The notes under the pieces are model-generated. The model did not search any database. It had not been told where the DNA came from and saw only the letters and a program-made list of their open reading frames with translations. The translations under genes were made by a program, and so were the position numbers. A stretch of 63,010 nucleotides of DNA, filler included, from Folioceros fuciformis (Eukaryota), in assembly GCA_049999805.1 (NCBI GenBank). It is 39 parts of 39 records of this genome, joined end to end, with 100 filler letters (N's around TTAATTAATTAA, not from the genome) between each part and the next. Parts side by side here need not be neighbours in the genome. Positions count along the whole stretch, not along the records: positions 45,401 to 52,097 come from JBNGIO010002487.1; 38 more parts are not named here. The stretch is one strand, 5' to 3'. Of the stretch, positions 44,678-54,783 are shown piece after piece. How positions within the stretch are numbered: position 1 is the first letter of the stretch; each line of letters opens with the position of its first letter.

Positions 44678-45210
44678 GTCCTTACATGAGTTATCTAACG
44701 AAATCGGAATTTGAGCATGGCGCTGTAATAAGAACTGGTTATAGTATTACACAAGTAGGAACCATTTCTTACATTTTTGGAGGTCTTCTTAACAATTATG
44801 GACAGGTACTTAACACATGTTTAGATTATATTGCACAAAGGATGACTTTTTTTTTTTTGCATAGCTTAAGCCCTTTGCTTTCTAATCATAAATAATTGCA
44901 GACAGATGACCTTTTTGCAATCGATGCTCAAACTTTAGTTTGGACAAAACCTGTTACTACAGGCTCAGCACCTGCCCCTCGTGATGGCCATTCTGCTGCA
45001 TTTGATCGTTATAGAGGGTGAGTTATTAGAAGTGTTACCATTTTCCAATCAATAATATTTAAGGAAAATATCATTTAAATTATATTATTTTTAAAAATAT
45101 TCTAATAGTTTCTGTATGATAGTCTATATATATTTGGAGGAAGAAATGAGGAACATAAGCTCTTAAATGACATTGCTTTCCTTGATCTTCACCATTGGGT
45201 GTGGACTAAG
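44678..45210 (+). CDS. Kelch-repeat protein, three internal exons
   Basis: Exons 44678-44805, 44902-45017 and 45123-45210: RTGYSITQVGTISYIFGG, WTKPVTTGSAPAPRDGHSA, LYIFGGRN...LNDI...W.W. Confidence 0.85.
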
Positions 45211-45464
45211 GTAATTAGGCTTTCACAAATGGACAATTGAAAAGATTTGATAAAAAACATCGGCATCTTTATCGTCCAGCGCGTGCATGAACTTTAATCA
45301 NNNNNNNNNNNNNNNNNNNNNNNNNNNNNNNNNNNNNNNNNNNNTTAATTAATTAANNNNNNNNNNNNNNNNNNNNNNNNNNNNNNNNNNNNNNNNNNNN
45401 CCCCGGCACGGAGTGTGGGGGGGGGGGCACACAACAGCACCCGCACCAGAGCACACCTGGTAAT

Positions 45465-45653
45465 TGTTAGATGAATAATAGATTGTACCCCGTCCTAGGG
45501 TTAGATATTTAACTAAGGGTACAAGTCACATAAGTGACCTAGGTTTAACGCGAAACGTTTTTGTATTTAAGGACCTTTTTGCCTTTTGATAATTATTCTT
45601 ACTTGTGCACTTCTGGTTTTTGTGTGCAAGAGCTTCCGCTCTTTTTCTTAACA
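45465..45653 (+). repeat. 5' LTR (189 bp)
   Basis: Begins TGTTAG and ends TTAACA (short terminal inverted repeat), directly followed by the PBS. The second LTR is not in the contig, so the left boundary is inferred. Confidence 0.75.
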
Positions 45654-45666
45654 TGGTATCAGAGCC
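45654..45666 (+). promoter_or_regulatory. Primer binding site complementary to initiator tRNA-Met
   Basis: TGGTATCAGAGCC. Confidence 0.93.
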
Positions 45667-45832: not shown

Positions 45833-46456
45833 ATGTTTCGTGTCGATATGCCTCGCAGAAATTTGAGTCGCCCTCAGTGGGCTCCTGCTTATTTCTGCAG
45901 TCACAGATCCAGACGTCAGATACCTTGTGGTCTTCAACAGAATGAGGTAGAAGCACATTGCTTACCTGCTCTTCTGTCACACAGGTTGGCTGAGTCTGTC
46001 TTAGAGTCTCGATCATCTGCTTCATTAAGTAGGGCTCAGCGAAGAGCCATAGCAAGAAGGGACTCTGCAGCATATCGACAACAAATATCTCAGTTAGTGG
46101 ATGATCCAAGTTTGCAACGTACCAGTGTGACTCTGAATTCAAGCATTCTTGAGCGCCTTTCAGCCCTGGATCAGGCTATATCGGAATTGACAGTAGCGAG
46201 CTCCAGAATTGGAACGGTTTCTACATCAATTCTGCGCTTCATTCAACATTCAGAGAGGTGTAATGTTGAGATTCTGAGGCGCCTGACAGATGTGTGTGAA
46301 ATGGTTACTCAACTTGCACATAAACAAGGTTCAGTACTGGTTACCTCTGGCACATCAAAACCTGGATCGTTACTGGCTGATGATTTGAGTATGGAATTCG
46401 GTCAAGCTTTACTGTCTGCAATGCCTCAGAGACAGCAGACAGTGCAGGCGCCCTGA
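45833..46456 (+). CDS. Accessory ORF (207 aa) between PBS and gag, helical/coiled-coil-like
   Basis: Complete ATG-to-TGA ORF with heptad-like ILERLSALDQAISELTV and ILRRLTDVCEMVTQL. No family recognised. Confidence 0.6.
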   Translation: MFRVDMPRRNLSRPQWAPAYFCSHRSRRQIPCGLQQNEVEAHCLPALLSHRLAESVLESRSSASLSRAQRRAIARRDSAAYRQQISQLVDDPSLQRTSVTLNSSILERLSALDQAISELTVASSRIGTVSTSILRFIQHSERCNVEILRRLTDVCEMVTQLAHKQGSVLVTSGTSKPGSLLADDLSMEFGQALLSAMPQRQQTVQAP

Positions 46457-46721
46457 ATTTCCCTGCCTCTGTGGTGATCTGGTGTGTGCATGTTGCGCTG
46501 CCATCTTAGTTTGCTTCAGCATCCAGGTGCAGTGCCTGCGCAGCCAGCTACCAAGAGTCACTGTGACAAGTCGCAGCGGTTGGGTGGTCTTGCCACCTGG
46601 CGATTTTTTTTAAATTAAAACTTAAGGAAACAAATTCAAGGCAGCGTTTCATATTACTTACACTCAATTTAGGGTTACAGTTAGCCTGAAACGTTGTTTG
46701 ATAAAGGGAACGCGCCTGTTC

Positions 46722-49700
46722 ATGTTCTCCTCGTCTTGGGAGAATTCAGACAGTGACGCTGATGGATCTTCCGATGTAGATGAGAGTCTCCTGCAGAACC
46801 TTACAGCGCAGTTCTCTCATCTGCATTTAACACAACCATCTATTAGTTCTCTTACAATGGGAACAAACCTAGCCAGTCAGCTTGTTCCCTCTGGCTCTGT
46901 CTACTCTGGAGAATTCAAAGAGAAAGACAGATTCGATGGGAAACCATCTAGATTCGAAAGTTGGAAAGCCAGAATGAAAGCAAATCTCAATGCTAGAGAT
47001 GTGTGGGAATATGTAGACGGTACTATTCCCAACCCATTTACCATCCCTTCGACTGCTGCACAGCAACCAACAGCTGAGGACAAGTTGAAATGGACAAAAG
47101 GAAACAAAGTGGCCTTTGCCATCATTCTGAGTGGCCTGGATGAAACTACAGTCACTGAAGTAGAGTTCCTGGAAACAGCAGCAGCTGTTTGGAATCAACT
47201 GGTGGACACTTACCAGGTTCATAACGTTTGCACCTTGATCCATGTTCGAGAAGCCTTCCACAGCTTGAGGATGAAGGAAGGGGATCCAGTTGGAGCCTAT
47301 GTCACTAAGCTGAGGTACCTCCGAGCACAGTTGGCTGCGGTTGGTGCCAAGACGTCTGATGTGGAGATGGTTGCCCAACTGCTTACCGGCTTGCCTCCAT
47401 CCTATCAAACCTTCATCTCTGGTCAAAATGCAACTCTACGTGCTGCATATCAGGCTGCTGCAAGTGGGCAGCCAACTTCTCTGAATCTCAATGAGGTCAT
47501 TGGAGCGCTCCTACAGGAGGAGCAGAGCAGACGTAAGGACGGTGGCACTAGACTAAGAGGTGAAAAGGTCCTTTATGCATCAAAGAACAAAGGACCTTGG
47601 AAGGGGAAAGGAAAGAAAGGTGCATTCTTACCTAATGTCACATCTTCCTCAACTGCTACTCCCAAACGCCAAGGTAACTGCAATTGGTGTCAGTTGCCGG
47701 GTCACTGGGAACGCGACTGTCGTAAGAAGAAGGCCGGTGAAGCAAAGAGGGAGCCTAAACCAGAGGCTCATGTCACGGCCAACGACAAGATTAGTTCGTC
47801 GCAACAGCATCGACATAAAAGCAGCAGCACTGTACTTACAGTGTGCTTGACATCCTACAGGGAAAATTCGTTCTCATGGTTTGTTGACTCCGGTGCTACT
47901 GCCCATGTGTGCAACAATCGCAAGCTTTTCTCCACTCTGCACAAACAGCATTCACCACAATTAGTTTATGTTGGTGATTCTCGTGGAGTTGAAGTCAAGG
48001 GCTCTGGTAATGTGAGCATACCTTTGCTTGGAGGTGCTACATTGCACTTGGAAGACGTGCTGTATGTACCTGCCATGAGCAAGAATTTACTCAGCATTAG
48101 AGCTGTTGCACAAAGCAAGAAGTATGGCTTCCGGTTTGAGGACAGAAAGTGTTACATCTATGACCTAAGCTGCCCTCATGACAATATCGCTAAAGCTATC
48201 TTAGTAAACGACCTGTATCAGTTGGTTTCTGATACGAAGTTTAAAACTAGAGCTTTGGTTGCAGCAGCCCAGGCTCAGGCTAATCTATGGCACGCTAGAT
48301 TAGGACATGTAAACAAATTTAAGCTCAATGTCATGGCAAGCTCAGATCTTTACAAAGATAAGTTACCTTGTGGGTTTAAGCTCTTGGACTCATGCAGCTC
48401 ATGCATTCTGTCTAAACAGAAAGAGCTGCCTTTCAAGAACCCTGCTCCCACCAGAGCTACTGCCTTGCTGGAGCTGATACATGCCGATATCTCTGGAAGG
48501 ATTCAGGTAAAGTCGTTAGGAGGTGCAGAATACTACTTGACACTTACTGATGATTTCTCAAGGTATACGTGGACATTTCCTATCAAGCACAAGAACGAGG
48601 TGTATGATCACCTGGTGTCATGGATACCTATGGTTCAACGTCAGACTGGACACTTGGTGAAGTGTGTCAGGTCTGACAATGGTGGAGAGTTTACCGGACA
48701 GAAAATTGATGAGCTGTTCAACAAGTTCGGGATCATTCGACAGCTTGCAGTCCCCTACACACAGCAACAAAACGGCATTGCTGAGAGAAGAAACCAAACG
48801 ATTATGGGCATGACAAGGAGTATGCTTTCATATTCGGGACTACCTAAACCCTACTGGGCTGAAGCTGCAGTGACTGCAACATACCTTTTGAACAGAGTTG
48901 TTACATCTGCACTGAAAGGAAAAACTCCCTATGAAGCCTTCTGGGGAAGAAAACCTAGTCTTCAGCACTTGAGGGTGTTTGGATCACCTGCGTTTGCTTT
49001 CATTCCTAAAGCCAAGAGACAGAAGTTAGACAACCGTGCATGTCAACTTGTGTTTGTGGGCTATTCAGAGGAGTCGAAAGCTTACAAGCTACTTGATCCA
49101 ACTACTTTGAAGATCACTCTGTCTCGGAGTGCTACGTTTCAGGAGATTACCCACCCACGTACTGAACAGGATACTTCAGTCTTACCTGTCGGTAATTCAG
49201 CAGCTCGGGCATCGATGGAAGATGATGCTATTCAGTCTCCTTCTACTTATCCATTGTCTGATGGTGATTCAGACACTGGTGATCACGCTGCAGTGGGTGA
49301 CACCTTTGATGCTCCTGAAATTCATGATCCAGATGCTGGTGGTCAGGCAGTTGTCGATGCTGATGTACAAAATGAGCCGGTTAATCAACTTCAGGAGCCT
49401 GAGCATGTTACTTACTCTGAATCAGACGAAGAAGATGCTGTAGTTGATGAGGACGACGATTCAGGAGATGCTTCTCCTCGTGCCCCATCTCCTGCTGCTT
49501 CAGACGCCATTGATTCAGAGGGAGCTCCGACTGCCCCTGCAGTGGGGGATACCTCTTCCCGCTATCCCGTCAGAGAACGACGTGCTAGGGCAGACTGGTT
49601 GGAGCCTCCTTATAAGGCCATTGATTTCCGTCGTCCTTCTACACATGTAGCTGATGTACATGTTCCCGACGTTCGTCCTGATCCCCAGAGCTACAAAGAA

Positions 49701-51266
49701 GCCCTTGAAGGGCCTGATGGTGAGCATTGGCGGAAATCCATCCAAGACGAATACAACTCACTTATCAAAAACCATACCTGGGAGTTAGCTGATCTTCCTC
49801 CTGGACGCAAACCTATAACCTGCAAGTGGGTATTCAAAACGAAGTTAAAAGCTGATGGGACTATTGCTAGGTATAAGTCTCGACTGGTTGCTCGGGGATT
49901 TTCTCAGATTCCTGGCATCGACTACGGGGATACATTCTCACCTGTGGTGAAGCCTCCATCCGTCCGTATTCTCTTGGCTATGGCTGCTCAGTTCGACCTT
50001 GAGCTTGAGCAAATGGATGTATGTACAGCCTTTCTTCATGGAGAGCTTGAGGAAGTGCTGTACATGGTACAGCCTGAGGGCTTTGTTGACCCGAAGTTTC
50101 CTGCCAAAGTCTGCAAACTGTTAAAAACACTTTATGGGCTTAAGCAGAGCCCTCGTGCCTGGTACAAACGCATCATGAAATTCCTGAAGAAACATGGTTT
50201 TGTACAGTCACCAGCAGACTCTAATGTATTTTACCTCGATTCTGATGGTTTGTTCGTGATCTTGGCTCTCTATGTTGACGATGCCATCCTCCTCAGCAAT
50301 CACCCGTCACAGCTGGCTAAGGTGAAGGCCCTGCTTCGCTCTGAATTCGAGATGACTGATCAGGGCCCACTTGCCTTCTGCTTGGGCATTCAGATATTAA
50401 GAGACAGGTCACAGGGCAGCGTCGTTCTGCATCAAACCAAATACATTAAGGAGATTCTGAAACGTTTCCATCTTGACTTTGCTAAGTCTGTAGCTACGCC
50501 TACAGCAGTGGGGGAGAAACTTACGGCAGCACAGTCGCCGCAGGACAGTGAAGAGTTGGCTGCTATGACTGGTGTGCCTTATGCTGAAGCTGTAGGCTGC
50601 TTGATCTTTCTTGCCAACTGGACAAGGCCAGACATCAGCTATGCTGTCAGCGTTGTTTCCCAGTTCCTGCAGTCTCCTGGCAAAGTTCATTGGGGAGCTG
50701 TTAAAAGGATCTATCGATATCTGCGAGGTACAATGCAATATGGGCTACAGTATACCAAGGCTGCTGCCAAGGACTTTACCTTGCTTTCATACTCTGATGC
50801 TGACTGGGCCTCTGATGCCGACACCCGGAAAAGTCTCTCGGCTCATGTCTTCTTGCTGGCTCAGGGTGCTGTCAACTGGTCGTGCAAAAAGCAGACCACT
50901 CTAGCTCTGTCTTCAACTGAAGCAGAGTATAAGGCCCTGACAGACGCATGTAAGGAGTTAGAATGGGAAAGACAGTTCCTGGCTGCAGTTCACTTACCTC
51001 AGAAATGCCCCACTGTTCTTATGTGTGATAACATGTCGGCCATAGCTTTGGTCTCCAACCCACGTTTTCACGCCAGAACCAAACACATCGACTTGTATCA
51101 TCACTACATTCGTGATGTGGCTGAAAGGAGCATTGTTAAAGTGCAGTATGTTAGTACTGATCAAAATGTAGCCGATGTACTTACAAAGGGCTTAACCAAG
51201 CCTAAACACTACAAACATCTTGCAGCACTTGGGCTGCGAGTTTTCTCTATGCCAGCTAAAGTCTGA
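46722..51266 (+). CDS. Copia Gag-Pol polyprotein
   Basis: Zn knuckle CNWCQLPGHWERDC, protease WFVDSGATAH, integrase LWHARLGH/LELIHADISG/VRSDNGGEF/NGIAERRN, RT LYVDD, RNase H YSDADWA. Start is ATG 46722 or 46857. Confidence 0.97.
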   Translation: MFSSSWENSDSDADGSSDVDESLLQNLTAQFSHLHLTQPSISSLTMGTNLASQLVPSGSVYSGEFKEKDRFDGKPSRFESWKARMKANLNARDVWEYVDGTIPNPFTIPSTAAQQPTAEDKLKWTKGNKVAFAIILSGLDETTVTEVEFLETAAAVWNQLVDTYQVHNVCTLIHVREAFHSLRMKEGDPVGAYVTKLRYLRAQLAAVGAKTSDVEMVAQLLTGLPPSYQTFISGQNATLRAAYQAAASGQPTSLNLNEVIGALLQEEQSRRKDGGTRLRGEKVLYASKNKGPWKGKGKKGAFLPNVTSSSTATPKRQGNCNWCQLPGHWERDCRKKKAGEAKREPKPEAHVTANDKISSSQQHRHKSSSTVLTVCLTSYRENSFSWFVDSGATAHVCNNRKLFSTLHKQHSPQLVYVGDSRGVEVKGSGNVSIPLLGGATLHLEDVLYVPAMSKNLLSIRAVAQSKKYGFRFEDRKCYIYDLSCPHDNIAKAILVNDLYQLVSDTKFKTRALVAAAQAQANLWHARLGHVNKFKLNVMASSDLYKDKLPCGFKLLDSCSSCILSKQKELPFKNPAPTRATALLELIHADISGRIQVKSLGGAEYYLTLTDDFSRYTWTFPIKHKNEVYDHLVSWIPMVQRQTGHLVKCVRSDNGGEFTGQKIDELFNKFGIIRQLAVPYTQQQNGIAERRNQTIMGMTRSMLSYSGLPKPYWAEAAVTATYLLNRVVTSALKGKTPYEAFWGRKPSLQHLRVFGSPAFAFIPKAKRQKLDNRACQLVFVGYSEESKAYKLLDPTTLKITLSRSATFQEITHPRTEQDTSVLPVGNSAARASMEDDAIQSPSTYPLSDGDSDTGDHAAVGDTFDAPEIHDPDAGGQAVVDADVQNEPVNQLQEPEHVTYSESDEEDAVVDEDDDSGDASPRAPSPAASDAIDSEGAPTAPAVGDTSSRYPVRERRARADWLEPPYKAIDFRRPSTHVADVHVPDVRPDPQSYKEALEGPDGEHWRKSIQDEYNSLIKNHTWELADLPPGRKPITCKWVFKTKLKADGTIARYKSRLVARGFSQIPGIDYGDTFSPVVKPPSVRILLAMAAQFDLELEQMDVCTAFLHGELEEVLYMVQPEGFVDPKFPAKVCKLLKTLYGLKQSPRAWYKRIMKFLKKHGFVQSPADSNVFYLDSDGLFVILALYVDDAILLSNHPSQLAKVKALLRSEFEMTDQGPLAFCLGIQILRDRSQGSVVLHQTKYIKEILKRFHLDFAKSVATPTAVGEKLTAAQSPQDSEELAAMTGVPYAEAVGCLIFLANWTRPDISYAVSVVSQFLQSPGKVHWGAVKRIYRYLRGTMQYGLQYTKAAAKDFTLLSYSDADWASDADTRKSLSAHVFLLAQGAVNWSCKKQTTLALSSTEAEYKALTDACKELEWERQFLAAVHLPQKCPTVLMCDNMSAIALVSNPRFHARTKHIDLYHHYIRDVAERSIVKVQYVSTDQNVADVLTKGLTKPKHYKHLAALGLRVFSMPAKV

Positions 51267-51489
51267 AAAATCTCTCAACCTAGATTGCAGAAACGACAGC
51301 TATCTAGAACTCTGTTCTCGCAGGAAACAGATGTGTTGAGCTGACCTCTGGATGCTCAGCTTGCTCCTCTATAGCTGGTGGCTATCTGCATACAGGTTGA
51401 TGAGTGCAGCAGTCAGTGGATGAAGCTTCAGAGCTTAACCTAATCGTGGCTGCTGCAACAGAAGACTATGGAATTTTCTGCTTACCATG

Positions 51490-52097
51490 TCAGGCTGGAG
51501 GCCTATAGACGTACCCGAGAAGCTCTAACTCACTGATGACTGCGCGACACTCAGCAGGTGTAAGCGGATGAGCCAAGAGGTCTTTGGGTTGCGTCTCCTC
51601 CAGTAACTTCTCAAGCTCGAGCGTCCTCTCTCGGGCTGCGTTTAGCACCTTTTTTTCAATTCATCGCACTTCTCCAAGGTCTTGTGGAGGTGCCAAAGCA
51701 GGTTGCGGTCAGCCTGGTTCTGCCACCAGGAAACAGAGCTGGCGTTCTGGGTTGCAGCAGACGACGTCCTGATCCGAGTTGGCTTCGAGAAAGGAGAGGT
51801 CTTGATGTCGCTGCGCCTGGAATTCCCATGCTTGGACAGTTTCAGCTGACGCTCCTCCTGGTCGCTGTCGACTTCATCCGTGCTATATCGAGAAGTCGGT
51901 TCCCTCTGCCTCTCTGGAGATCGTAGCCGCTTGTGCCCACTGAGTTTGCAGTGTTTGAGATGCGCCTTTGTGCTGGCGAGGTTTCCATGAGGCGTAATGG
52001 GGAAGATGAGCCGGCCTCCGCGAGGACCATCTGAAGCTTGGGGCGTAATGCGATGTGCGGTGCTGAGTGACTCGTCCCGTCCTAACCCTACTGACGG
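51490..52097 (-). CDS. Antisense accessory ORF downstream of pol (5' end in gap; one frameshift in an A7 run)
   Basis: Minus frame open from 52097 to TAA at 51642 (151 aa: ...KLSGHKRLRSPERQ...WWQNQADRNLLWHLHKTLEKCDELKK). The -1 frame continues KVLNAARERTLELEKLLEE...VISELELLGYVYRPPA* to 51490. Confidence 0.55.
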
Positions 52098-53608: not shown

Positions 53609-54783
53609 TGGAGAGCAGGGGCCGAAGTCTGTGAAGGACAGACTATTGCAGCGCGGCAAGAGCCCCGCTAACTCCACACCTTGACTGATGGTAGCATCCA
53701 CCTGCATCGAGCACCACAGTTCGATTTACCAAAACGGCTACGGCTGCGAAGCACAAAAAGGGAGAATTTGAAGGCAGAATTCACTGCTGCTCACCTTGCA
53801 GGCAACGGAACAGTAGCGGTAGGCGTCCTGGAGGCTCCTGTCGCAGGTTTCGCACGCATTACCCTGCAATTTGGTAGGCCGGGGCTGAGGCCTCTGGTTC
53901 AGGAACACCACTCGTGCGCTGTTGATGATGTAAGTCTGCACAGCGAGCGGGAGCGGCCAGGCAGTGAGGCGATGAATTGTGCAGCCTGCGGTGTGGCGAG
54001 GCCTCATCTCAAGACTTGGCCTAGATGCGGATGAGCAGGGAAGGCAGATCTGGACGGCATTAGACTGAATCCAATCCACCACATTACATGAGTCCCCGAT
54101 TCCATACCTGAACTAAGGAGCAGTCCACCAATTTCTGAATGTCCTGCAGTCGAATGACATCGTGGTAAACGTATCTCCGGATCTGAAAGCAAACACCGAA
54201 AATTGAGGCGAGGAACTTGAGTTGAGCCCCGAGCTCCACATCGAGCTAAATTGGCCAGCCACTGCAACTCCGGATCTGAATTTTCAGGCGCTCCGGATCC
54301 GCTGTGCACAGCTTTCGGAGATCTACTCGCGGCAAACAAGTTGAGCGAGCTCAAGCTCAAAACGTCGCAAATTCGGCATGAGCAAGAGCTGCAGAAACGG
54401 CAGTAAGAGTGATCACCTGGAGTAGACGGTGCGTACTGTGCGGCGAGAGGCAATGCTGACAGATGCCGTCACTGCAATCGAGGCAGAAGACGTTCCTCTC
54501 ATTCTTCTTAGCGGCGGCGTGCTTGAGGCAGGGACTGAAGAACTTCTCGGTGAGCAGCGCCGCCAACCAACTCGGCCTTTGAGGCACTAGAGTAATAGCA
54601 TATCCCACCTGCACAGCCGCCATAATTGAGCACACAGGAGCGATCCTGGAGCAAAAGGCCGCCAATTCCGCATTCCACTCCCCGACTTCACCACTGACAC
54701 TGCCAAGCGGATTCCGCAAGAAGCAAAGCAGCCCAGCAGCGGAAGCGACGAGAGCGGTAGCAGCAGAGCAGAGCGAGTACCAT
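53609..54783 (-). CDS. PLATZ transcription factor, 3' truncated
   Basis: Exons 54783-54781 (ATG, inferred), 54608-54417, 54182-54108, 53935-53795 and 53701-gap. Motifs: NVFCLDC...CQHC...[39 protein letters not shown]...YCSVACK. Confidence 0.95.

Follow-up and report, generated by a model that had tools for sequence, protein, structure and literature searches.

Folioceros fuciformis carries a three-ORF group of plant copia retrotransposons with a lineage-wide antisense accessory gene behind pol, a gene of the aORF-3R kind (antisense extra ORFs on the 3′ side) that is apparently undescribed in such elements. What antisense extra ORFs do for LTR elements is not settled, and those of plants are regarded as a gypsy trait; here a short antisense ORF is the rule in a copia group. 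The first-pass annotation had proposed a short-LTR copia with both a 5′ sense and a 3′ antisense ORF, and this layout is supported, both in the annotated copy and across its relatives.

Element architecture and the three-gene layout

The window, by which we mean the whole 63,010-nt stretch of DNA that was analysed, consists of short contigs strung together with spacers (N44, 12 letters, N44), so sequences on the two sides of a gap are unrelated. The antisense ORF sits at the end of the contig at 45401–52097 (C2487 of G000, the genome contig set), which contains a near-complete copia element of about 6.8 kb. Two features on other contigs are unrelated to it: short exons at 44930–45230, on the preceding contig, read by eye as a probable Kelch-repeat gene, and a PLATZ transcription factor exon on the minus strand at 53741–54112 (E 1.7e-19), a hint of a plant host.

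On the plus strand, the element is flanked by the 5-bp target-site duplication GTAAT (45460–45464) and opens with a 189-bp 5′ LTR of the TG...CA type (45465–45653), whose ends are matched at 100% on other contigs and whose depth in run X2 is about twice the internal depth. A primer-binding site for initiator tRNA-Met follows (45654–45665, +), recognised from the sequence and from matches to tRNA-Met genes. Within U5, the letters at 45632–45640 (+) complement the D-loop of the host's initiator tRNA-Met, and tRNA-Met genes in G000 are retrieved by a pattern that combines the complements of these letters and of the primer-binding site. The region 45632–45665 is thus complementary to two parts of one host tRNA-Met, an extended primer contact; of the 17 LTR ends examined, about 6 have a recognisable U5 stretch. 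The LTRs of the window element's group also contain telomere-like AGGGTT(A) repeats, located at 45490–45525 in the window.

A 5′ sense ORF of 207 aa (45833–46456, +), with a basic N-terminus and a leucine-rich helical C-terminal half, precedes the intact gag-protease-integrase-RT-RNase H frame (46626–51266, +; 1546 codons stop to stop). The Pfam domain order (Retrotran_gag_2, Pol_BBD, rve, RVT_2) places integrase ahead of RT/RNase H in one polyprotein. With this order, two TG...CA LTRs, a primer-binding site, a polypurine tract (PPT) and a 5-bp duplication, the element belongs to Ty1/copia. Its named relatives are at most about 55% identical in RT, and it possesses a full tRNA-Met primer-binding site, whereas that of Bryco is a half-tRNA site.

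Neither a PPT nor a 3′ LTR follows the pol stop inside the window, as was noted initially. Both fall within 12 nt past the contig edge: in contigs from runs X1 and X2, which come from a single sample that may also underlie the assembly and hence are not independent, position 52097 is joined to the first base of the 3′ LTR through 12 letters. The pol stop and the 3′ LTR are therefore separated by 843 nt, and the LTR lies beyond the antisense ORF, the placement on which the first-pass annotation had made its reading depend. A small hairpin ahead of the PPT starts at 52083–52097 (+), and the same order of hairpin, PPT and LTR is found in sister elements; the hairpin, with a variable loop, occurs in main-clade elements and is missing in the far clade.

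The predicted target-site duplication was recovered on contig C3793 (locus L015), where an LTR end identical to that of the window is followed by GTAAT, the letters of the window's 5′ flank. Contigs C1237 and C969 form a second insertion pair with the duplication GCAAC, and, counting C5778 and a single loose end from the runs, at least four insertions carry the window LTR. Over 6.7 kb, the assembly and the run contigs differ by five single bases and in the length of one homopolymer, which marks the subfamily as young. The window copy is likely a decaying member of it.

The 5′ sense ORF has 12 matches in G000, with pN/pS of 0.62–0.64 against two relatives; it matches no Pfam family at cut-off. 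Pairs of 5′ ORFs within the group have pN/pS of 0.25–0.70. A Met-started non-gag sense ORF of more than 70 codons is present in 15 of the 18 elements with a readable primer-binding region, the exceptions being L080 and L087, without a 5′ ORF, and L090, which runs straight into gag. The 5′ ORFs differ greatly between clades. The three-gene layout, namely a 5′ sense ORF, gag-pol and a 3′ antisense ORF, holds for the group. Far-clade elements L089, L075 and L081 have LTRs opening with TA, not TG, and a 5′ ORF of 190–250 aa with a Cys-rich C-terminal motif, evolving under purifying selection.

An antisense gene family under purifying selection

The open natural ORF of the sister copy L005 (176 aa) served as the query, and at least 103 places in G000 match it (120 candidates scored; some copies counted twice). 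From these places 40 stretches were fetched, chosen by protein likeness with long contigs favoured. The conserved domain is present in all 40, and a copia RNase H lies just upstream on the opposite strand in 38 (exceptions L088 and L094). A second selection, made to avoid circularity, started from RNase H, taking the top 30 of 150 listed matches and excluding the window and one locus without downstream DNA; the antisense domain is present in 27 of these 28 loci. Another locus, L142 (G000:C3257), has a divergent and apparently truncated antisense ORF behind a main-clade RNase H (profile E 0.13).

Among 43 rows, 56 pairs are 3–30% apart; over these pairs the antisense frame has a pN/pS of 0.32, versus 0.41–1.29 in the other five. 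The same rows contain 19 stops in the antisense frame versus 97–233 in the others, a count that is biased because protein likeness guided the choice of the 40 stretches. The value of 0.41, with 97 stops, belongs to the sense frame that shares wobble positions with the antisense one. The window copy and L005 have 76% amino-acid identity (pN 0.15, pS 0.78), their differences falling 21/11/49 by codon position; the N-terminal half is constrained more weakly (pN/pS 0.41–0.58). The antisense ORF is a real gene family under purifying selection in the antisense frame, and the conservation among copies that was to be checked by a dN/dS-type comparison is there.

The shared domain comprises about 85 residues in the C-terminal part of the ORF. 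An AlphaFold model of a natural sister protein (mean pLDDT 84.5; pTM only 0.44) contains a long helix at 17–57, a proline-rich loop and a short helix at 69–81. Hydrophobic columns 22, 26, 33, 36, 40, 43, 47, 50 and 54 follow a 3-4 pattern, accompanied by conserved H, K and E residues, and the long helix is predicted to form a five-heptad coiled coil. Upstream of the domain lies a variable polar linker, and an in-frame Met is found in 35 of 40 relatives. A strong basic cluster (at least four K/R in six residues) occurs in only 9 of 40, which weakens the nuclear function suggested in the first-pass annotation. Further upstream, 25 of 40 relatives encode a hydrophobic stretch (mean Kyte-Doolittle value of at least 2.0 over 17 residues), whereas the opposite strand does so in 8 of 40. 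Of the 25 stretches, 13 are in frame with the domain, and the other 12 form a short upstream ORF or have been shifted by decay. Across families, the length of the protein ranges from about 90 to 260 aa.

Searches with a single sister protein against a 5.8-billion protein set matched none of 109 candidates, and the domain alignment matched none of 7991 longer proteins. A profile search of 1.84 billion representatives returned four matches (E 2e-6 to 5e-4), partial and in multiple stretches, which we read as generic coiled-coil repeats. The domain matches no Pfam family, its best match among PDB sequences is the c-Fos zipper (E 0.13, not significant), and it is absent from all 595 metagenome loci. 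In the ESM Atlas we found unnamed clusters, at 0.89–0.90 for the antisense domain and 0.78 for the 5′ ORF. Fold searches returned generic helices only (top Z 5.0, with rows tied at Z 4.7–5.0) and, in BFVD, nothing at E 0.001; the homodimer prediction score is 0.08. A winged-helix reading was discarded, as DprA_WH reached E 0.022 on a short piece where the model has one helix. These collections are poor in unannotated plant repeat DNA, so the blanks are not evidence that the protein is absent in other plants.

In the window itself the gene is in two pieces. The upstream piece (51642–52097, −) is open for 151 codons, from 52097 at the contig edge down to the stop at 51642–51644; the sequence motifs quoted for it initially are present, and the conserved domain begins near 51731. 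The downstream piece (51490–51657, −), 80% identical to the L005 sister protein, carries the second half of the domain and, after 56 codons, the stop at 51490–51492. The frame changes at a T7 run (51650–51656, −), as the first-pass annotation had described. For the comparison of A7 with A8 proposed there, the X2 contig has one extra T (depth 49.9 of 49.9), the X1 contigs break at this position, and the shift is private, with a gap in 0 of 42 other copies. As the break is missing from the X2 contig and from the 42 other copies, it reflects either an error in the assembly or a change confined to one copy, and not recoding; programmed frameshifting was rejected because none of those 42 has the gap. 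A further 2-nt loss at 51813 was seen in one contig from another sample (depth 6.8).

An open frame of 151 codons was reached by 9.7% of 2000 simulated sequences (p ~0.10); its length alone is within chance, and the conservation of the frame is beyond it. The start had been placed in the assembly gap, but there are only the 12 junction letters between 52097 and the LTR. No in-frame Met is found in the 151 codons or in these 12 letters, and with the 5′ LTR as a stand-in the frame ends at a stop after 10 codons of LTR, with no Met before it. The counterpart of the sisters' second start codon (51966–51968, −) is not ATG in the aligned window copy, X1 and X2 agreeing. The ATG aligned with their first start (51986–51988, −) is out of frame because the segment after it is missing; this segment, absent relative to four sisters, amounts to 40 nt relative to L005 and lies between short direct repeats. 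Its loss has also removed the hydrophobic stretch. Ahead of the last helix there are five antisense ATGs, all of them in another frame, and the X1 and X2 contigs contain no alternative letters at the lost-start positions. Splicing into the domain was rejected for this copy, as a donor-like site is absent from the first 450 nt; the window LTR has one donor-like site, whose counterpart was not seen in L005. Lacking an in-frame AUG and a segment that the sisters retain, the window copy is not the intact gene that had been implied, and the antisense gene is probably dead in the window subfamily.

Distribution among copia lineages and the 3′ motif

The antisense ORF adjoins pol genes of three kinds: a main RT clade with support 100 that comprises 25 rows, a middle group, and a far group about 40% identical in RT/RNase H. 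Trees were built from quick searches, and rows with short pol cover were dropped. In the tree of the antisense ORF, L066 and L076 join L059, L061 and L065 (100), L093 and L096 join L092 and L095 (100), and the far group weakly joins L067 and L091 (82). This tree rejects keeping the 27-member RT main clade together (p-AU 7e-7), and the reverse AU tests on RT/RNase H trees, made one grouping at a time, are not significant (p 0.10, 0.32, 0.20 and 0.25). Pairwise identities point the same way as the first test: L066 and L059 are 70% identical in the antisense ORF and 39–61% in RT, whereas L059 and the window are 42% identical in the ORF and 64–87% in RT. L066 and L065 share LTR and 3′ DNA at 79–89% and little of pol, and Gag proteins encoded beside the antisense ORF are only about 27–48% identical. 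The ORF lies beside the polyproteins of at least three RT groups, likely through cassette swapping; as the pol-tree AU tests are not significant, the argument for swapping is one of distances and a single test.

A conserved non-coding two-block motif (51414–51448, +), present in 39 of 40 stretches, occupies part of the interval that separates the stops of pol and of the antisense ORF. It consists of 13 nt, a spacer of 15–21 nt and 5 nt, with 56 exact matches in G000 and 0 in the control. Copia families both with and without the antisense ORF carry it, which rules it out as a site belonging to that ORF. A conserved fold was rejected as well (alifold −3.2 kcal). The motif has no Rfam match, we found no description of it in the literature, and none of its 22 metagenome matches lies beside a copia pol or an antisense domain. 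Its first block resembles the initiator-tRNA D-loop plus three extra bases and so could pair with U5 at 45632–45640.

Among 29 loci selected by the motif, 8 contain RNase H, the motif and a PPT within about 35–210 nt, and no antisense ORF; the ORF looks like an insert between the motif and the PPT. Copia families without the ORF (L130, L141, L143 and L151–L155) have LTR-like ends that start with TAG and end near CGAAA, not TG...CA.

Possible role and relation to known systems

The antisense gene is accessory, since the window subfamily has at least four near-identical insertions and an intact gag-pol and no AUG for this gene. We tentatively favour, at a little below even confidence, a small coiled-coil accessory protein acting in trans on a host partner, the window copy being likely broken. 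An antisense transcript would start in or near the 3′ LTR and be translated from the gene's own AUG, and the putative five-heptad coiled coil would bind a protein partner. The hydrophobic segment at the N-terminus may, in some families, anchor a longer form in the membrane; in others it may be a separate upstream peptide. The likely benefit would be help against host control of the element, at the level of transcription, silencing or RNA fate. A trans-acting helper was chosen because the gene is under selection beside divergent Gag-Pol, yet absent or broken in mobile families, and its retention next to such dissimilar Gag proteins makes a host partner preferable to Gag or Pol. Recent movement of the window subfamily without a working copy weakens the case for a large benefit, unless the protein is supplied in trans or the loss postdates the insertions. 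A fuller version, in which an undescribed plant copia group has a retrovirus-like pair of accessory genes and the antisense cassette is passed between unrelated copia lineages because it specifies a new host-directed counter-silencing protein with membrane-bound long and soluble short forms from two starts, seems to us unlikely as a whole.

The loss of the start in a young subfamily with intact gag-pol would also be expected if the product were a self-limiting copy-number factor, or a chaperone, binding the element's own Gag, integrase or particle, so that its loss permits expansion. Self-encoded copy-number factors have been described (PMC11624286; PMC7264820), and in the tail-to-tail layout the antisense RNA is complementary to the genomic RNA, so that a convergent transcript may add dsRNA silencing. 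We consider this rather improbable, as a factor binding its cognate partner should not tolerate the very divergent Gag-Pol beside which the gene is kept, and copies of the window subfamily are few (at least four flanks), which is no burst. The frame might, on the other hand, not be a gene at all but an RNA structure, a sense-strand signal or a once-captured fragment that is drifting, as the stops and frameshifts in many copies, the missing start in the window and the roughly one-in-ten simulations reaching 151 open codons might suggest. This is highly improbable and already largely refuted by the third-position excess and the low pN/pS in exactly the antisense frame, by the fivefold number of stops in the wobble-sharing sense frame and by protein-level conservation across RT groups only about 40% identical.

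Two further alternatives take one part of the protein as decisive. A Met-Glu start, about 19 hydrophobic residues, a polar linker and the coiled coil recur in several families, and extra ORFs of rotifer elements with a short TM segment and a coiled coil have been read as env-like (PMC5408684). A membrane-anchored long form could then be the main product, with an env-like or movement role in moving or tethering particles at membranes or plasmodesmata. We regard this as quite unlikely, given that the stretch is out of frame in 12 of 25 cases, including the young pair L092/L095 (the L095 LTRs are 99.4% alike), that in-frame deletions shorten it in L005, and that plant env-like ORFs are sense, not antisense. 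Similarly doubtful is a nuclear DNA-binding or bZIP-like regulator of LTR transcription, comparable to maize Grande GENE23 or HTLV-1 HBZ. Basic clusters in the window and its close sisters, the non-significant c-Fos zipper match, the nuclear location of GENE23 (PMC7264820), shown in the aORF-3R class for Grande only, and an L066 LTR 79–89% like those of its ORF donors all fit such a regulator; the rarity of strong basic clusters, the mere eight codons ahead of the domain core in L092/L095, the presence of the 3′ motif without the ORF, which makes it no dedicated site, and the retention of the gene beside unrelated LTRs in the far clade do not. One small genome thus holds a set of natural contrasts (gains and swaps of the gene, its split and fused versions, families that lack the ORF and a young start-less subfamily), which makes function testable.

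Extra ORFs with parts of this layout are known in other elements. On the 5′ side they include Ogre eORF-5′F, Retrosat2 ORF0 and those in 4–5% of Ikeros and Bianca (PMC6317226 supplement; PMC4093653); likened by position and strand, they share the sense orientation and the place between primer-binding site and gag, and the window element adds a 3′ antisense ORF. The env-like eORF-3′F of SIRE is, as here, an extra copia ORF behind pol with hydrophobic segments; however, in SIRE it is sense in 74% and antisense in 1%, in elements averaging 9.9 kb, whereas the window element is 6.8 kb with a 189-bp LTR and its ORF is antisense (PMC6317226). A SIRE-type sense ORF does not fit, with selection acting on the antisense frame. 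In the REXdb table, 3′ reverse ORFs are given for 1% of SIRE and for none of the other copia lineages whose cell is filled, in a survey that counts eORFs from 250 codons, leaves Bianca and Ikeros cells partly empty and could hold copia cases among its per-element entries (PMC6317226). Size cut-offs, this suggests, conceal short accessory genes in copia annotation. In the literature outside subscription papers we found no plant copia group described with this layout.

A small antisense helical protein behind pol is likewise the product of retroviral accessory genes such as HTLV-1 HBZ (PMC11963269); the window protein has no significant bZIP match, and the likeness is an analogy only. Closer is Retand TRP28 (PF04195), a lineage-wide conserved antisense domain behind pol; however, it belongs to gypsy elements and lies in a region of 2.9–6.6 kb with tandem arrays (PMC11963269), whereas the window element has copia order and 843 nt, and none of 22 domain rows and none of 6 longer ORFs matches PF04195 (Transposase_28). 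Antisense ORFs of the aORF-3R class are reported in maize Grande (gene23), rice RIRE2, Silene Retand, bean pvRetro13 and Botrytis Boty, with function given as unknown (PMC7264820; PMC4093653). The window group shares with them the position between pol and the 3′ LTR, the orientation antisense to gag-pol, the presence in most copies and the conservation; the checkable named examples are gypsy, with bean ORF2s of 211–939 aa, whereas the window group is copia, with proteins of about 90–260 aa in a short 3′ region, a domain without a Pfam match and signs of swapping between RT groups.
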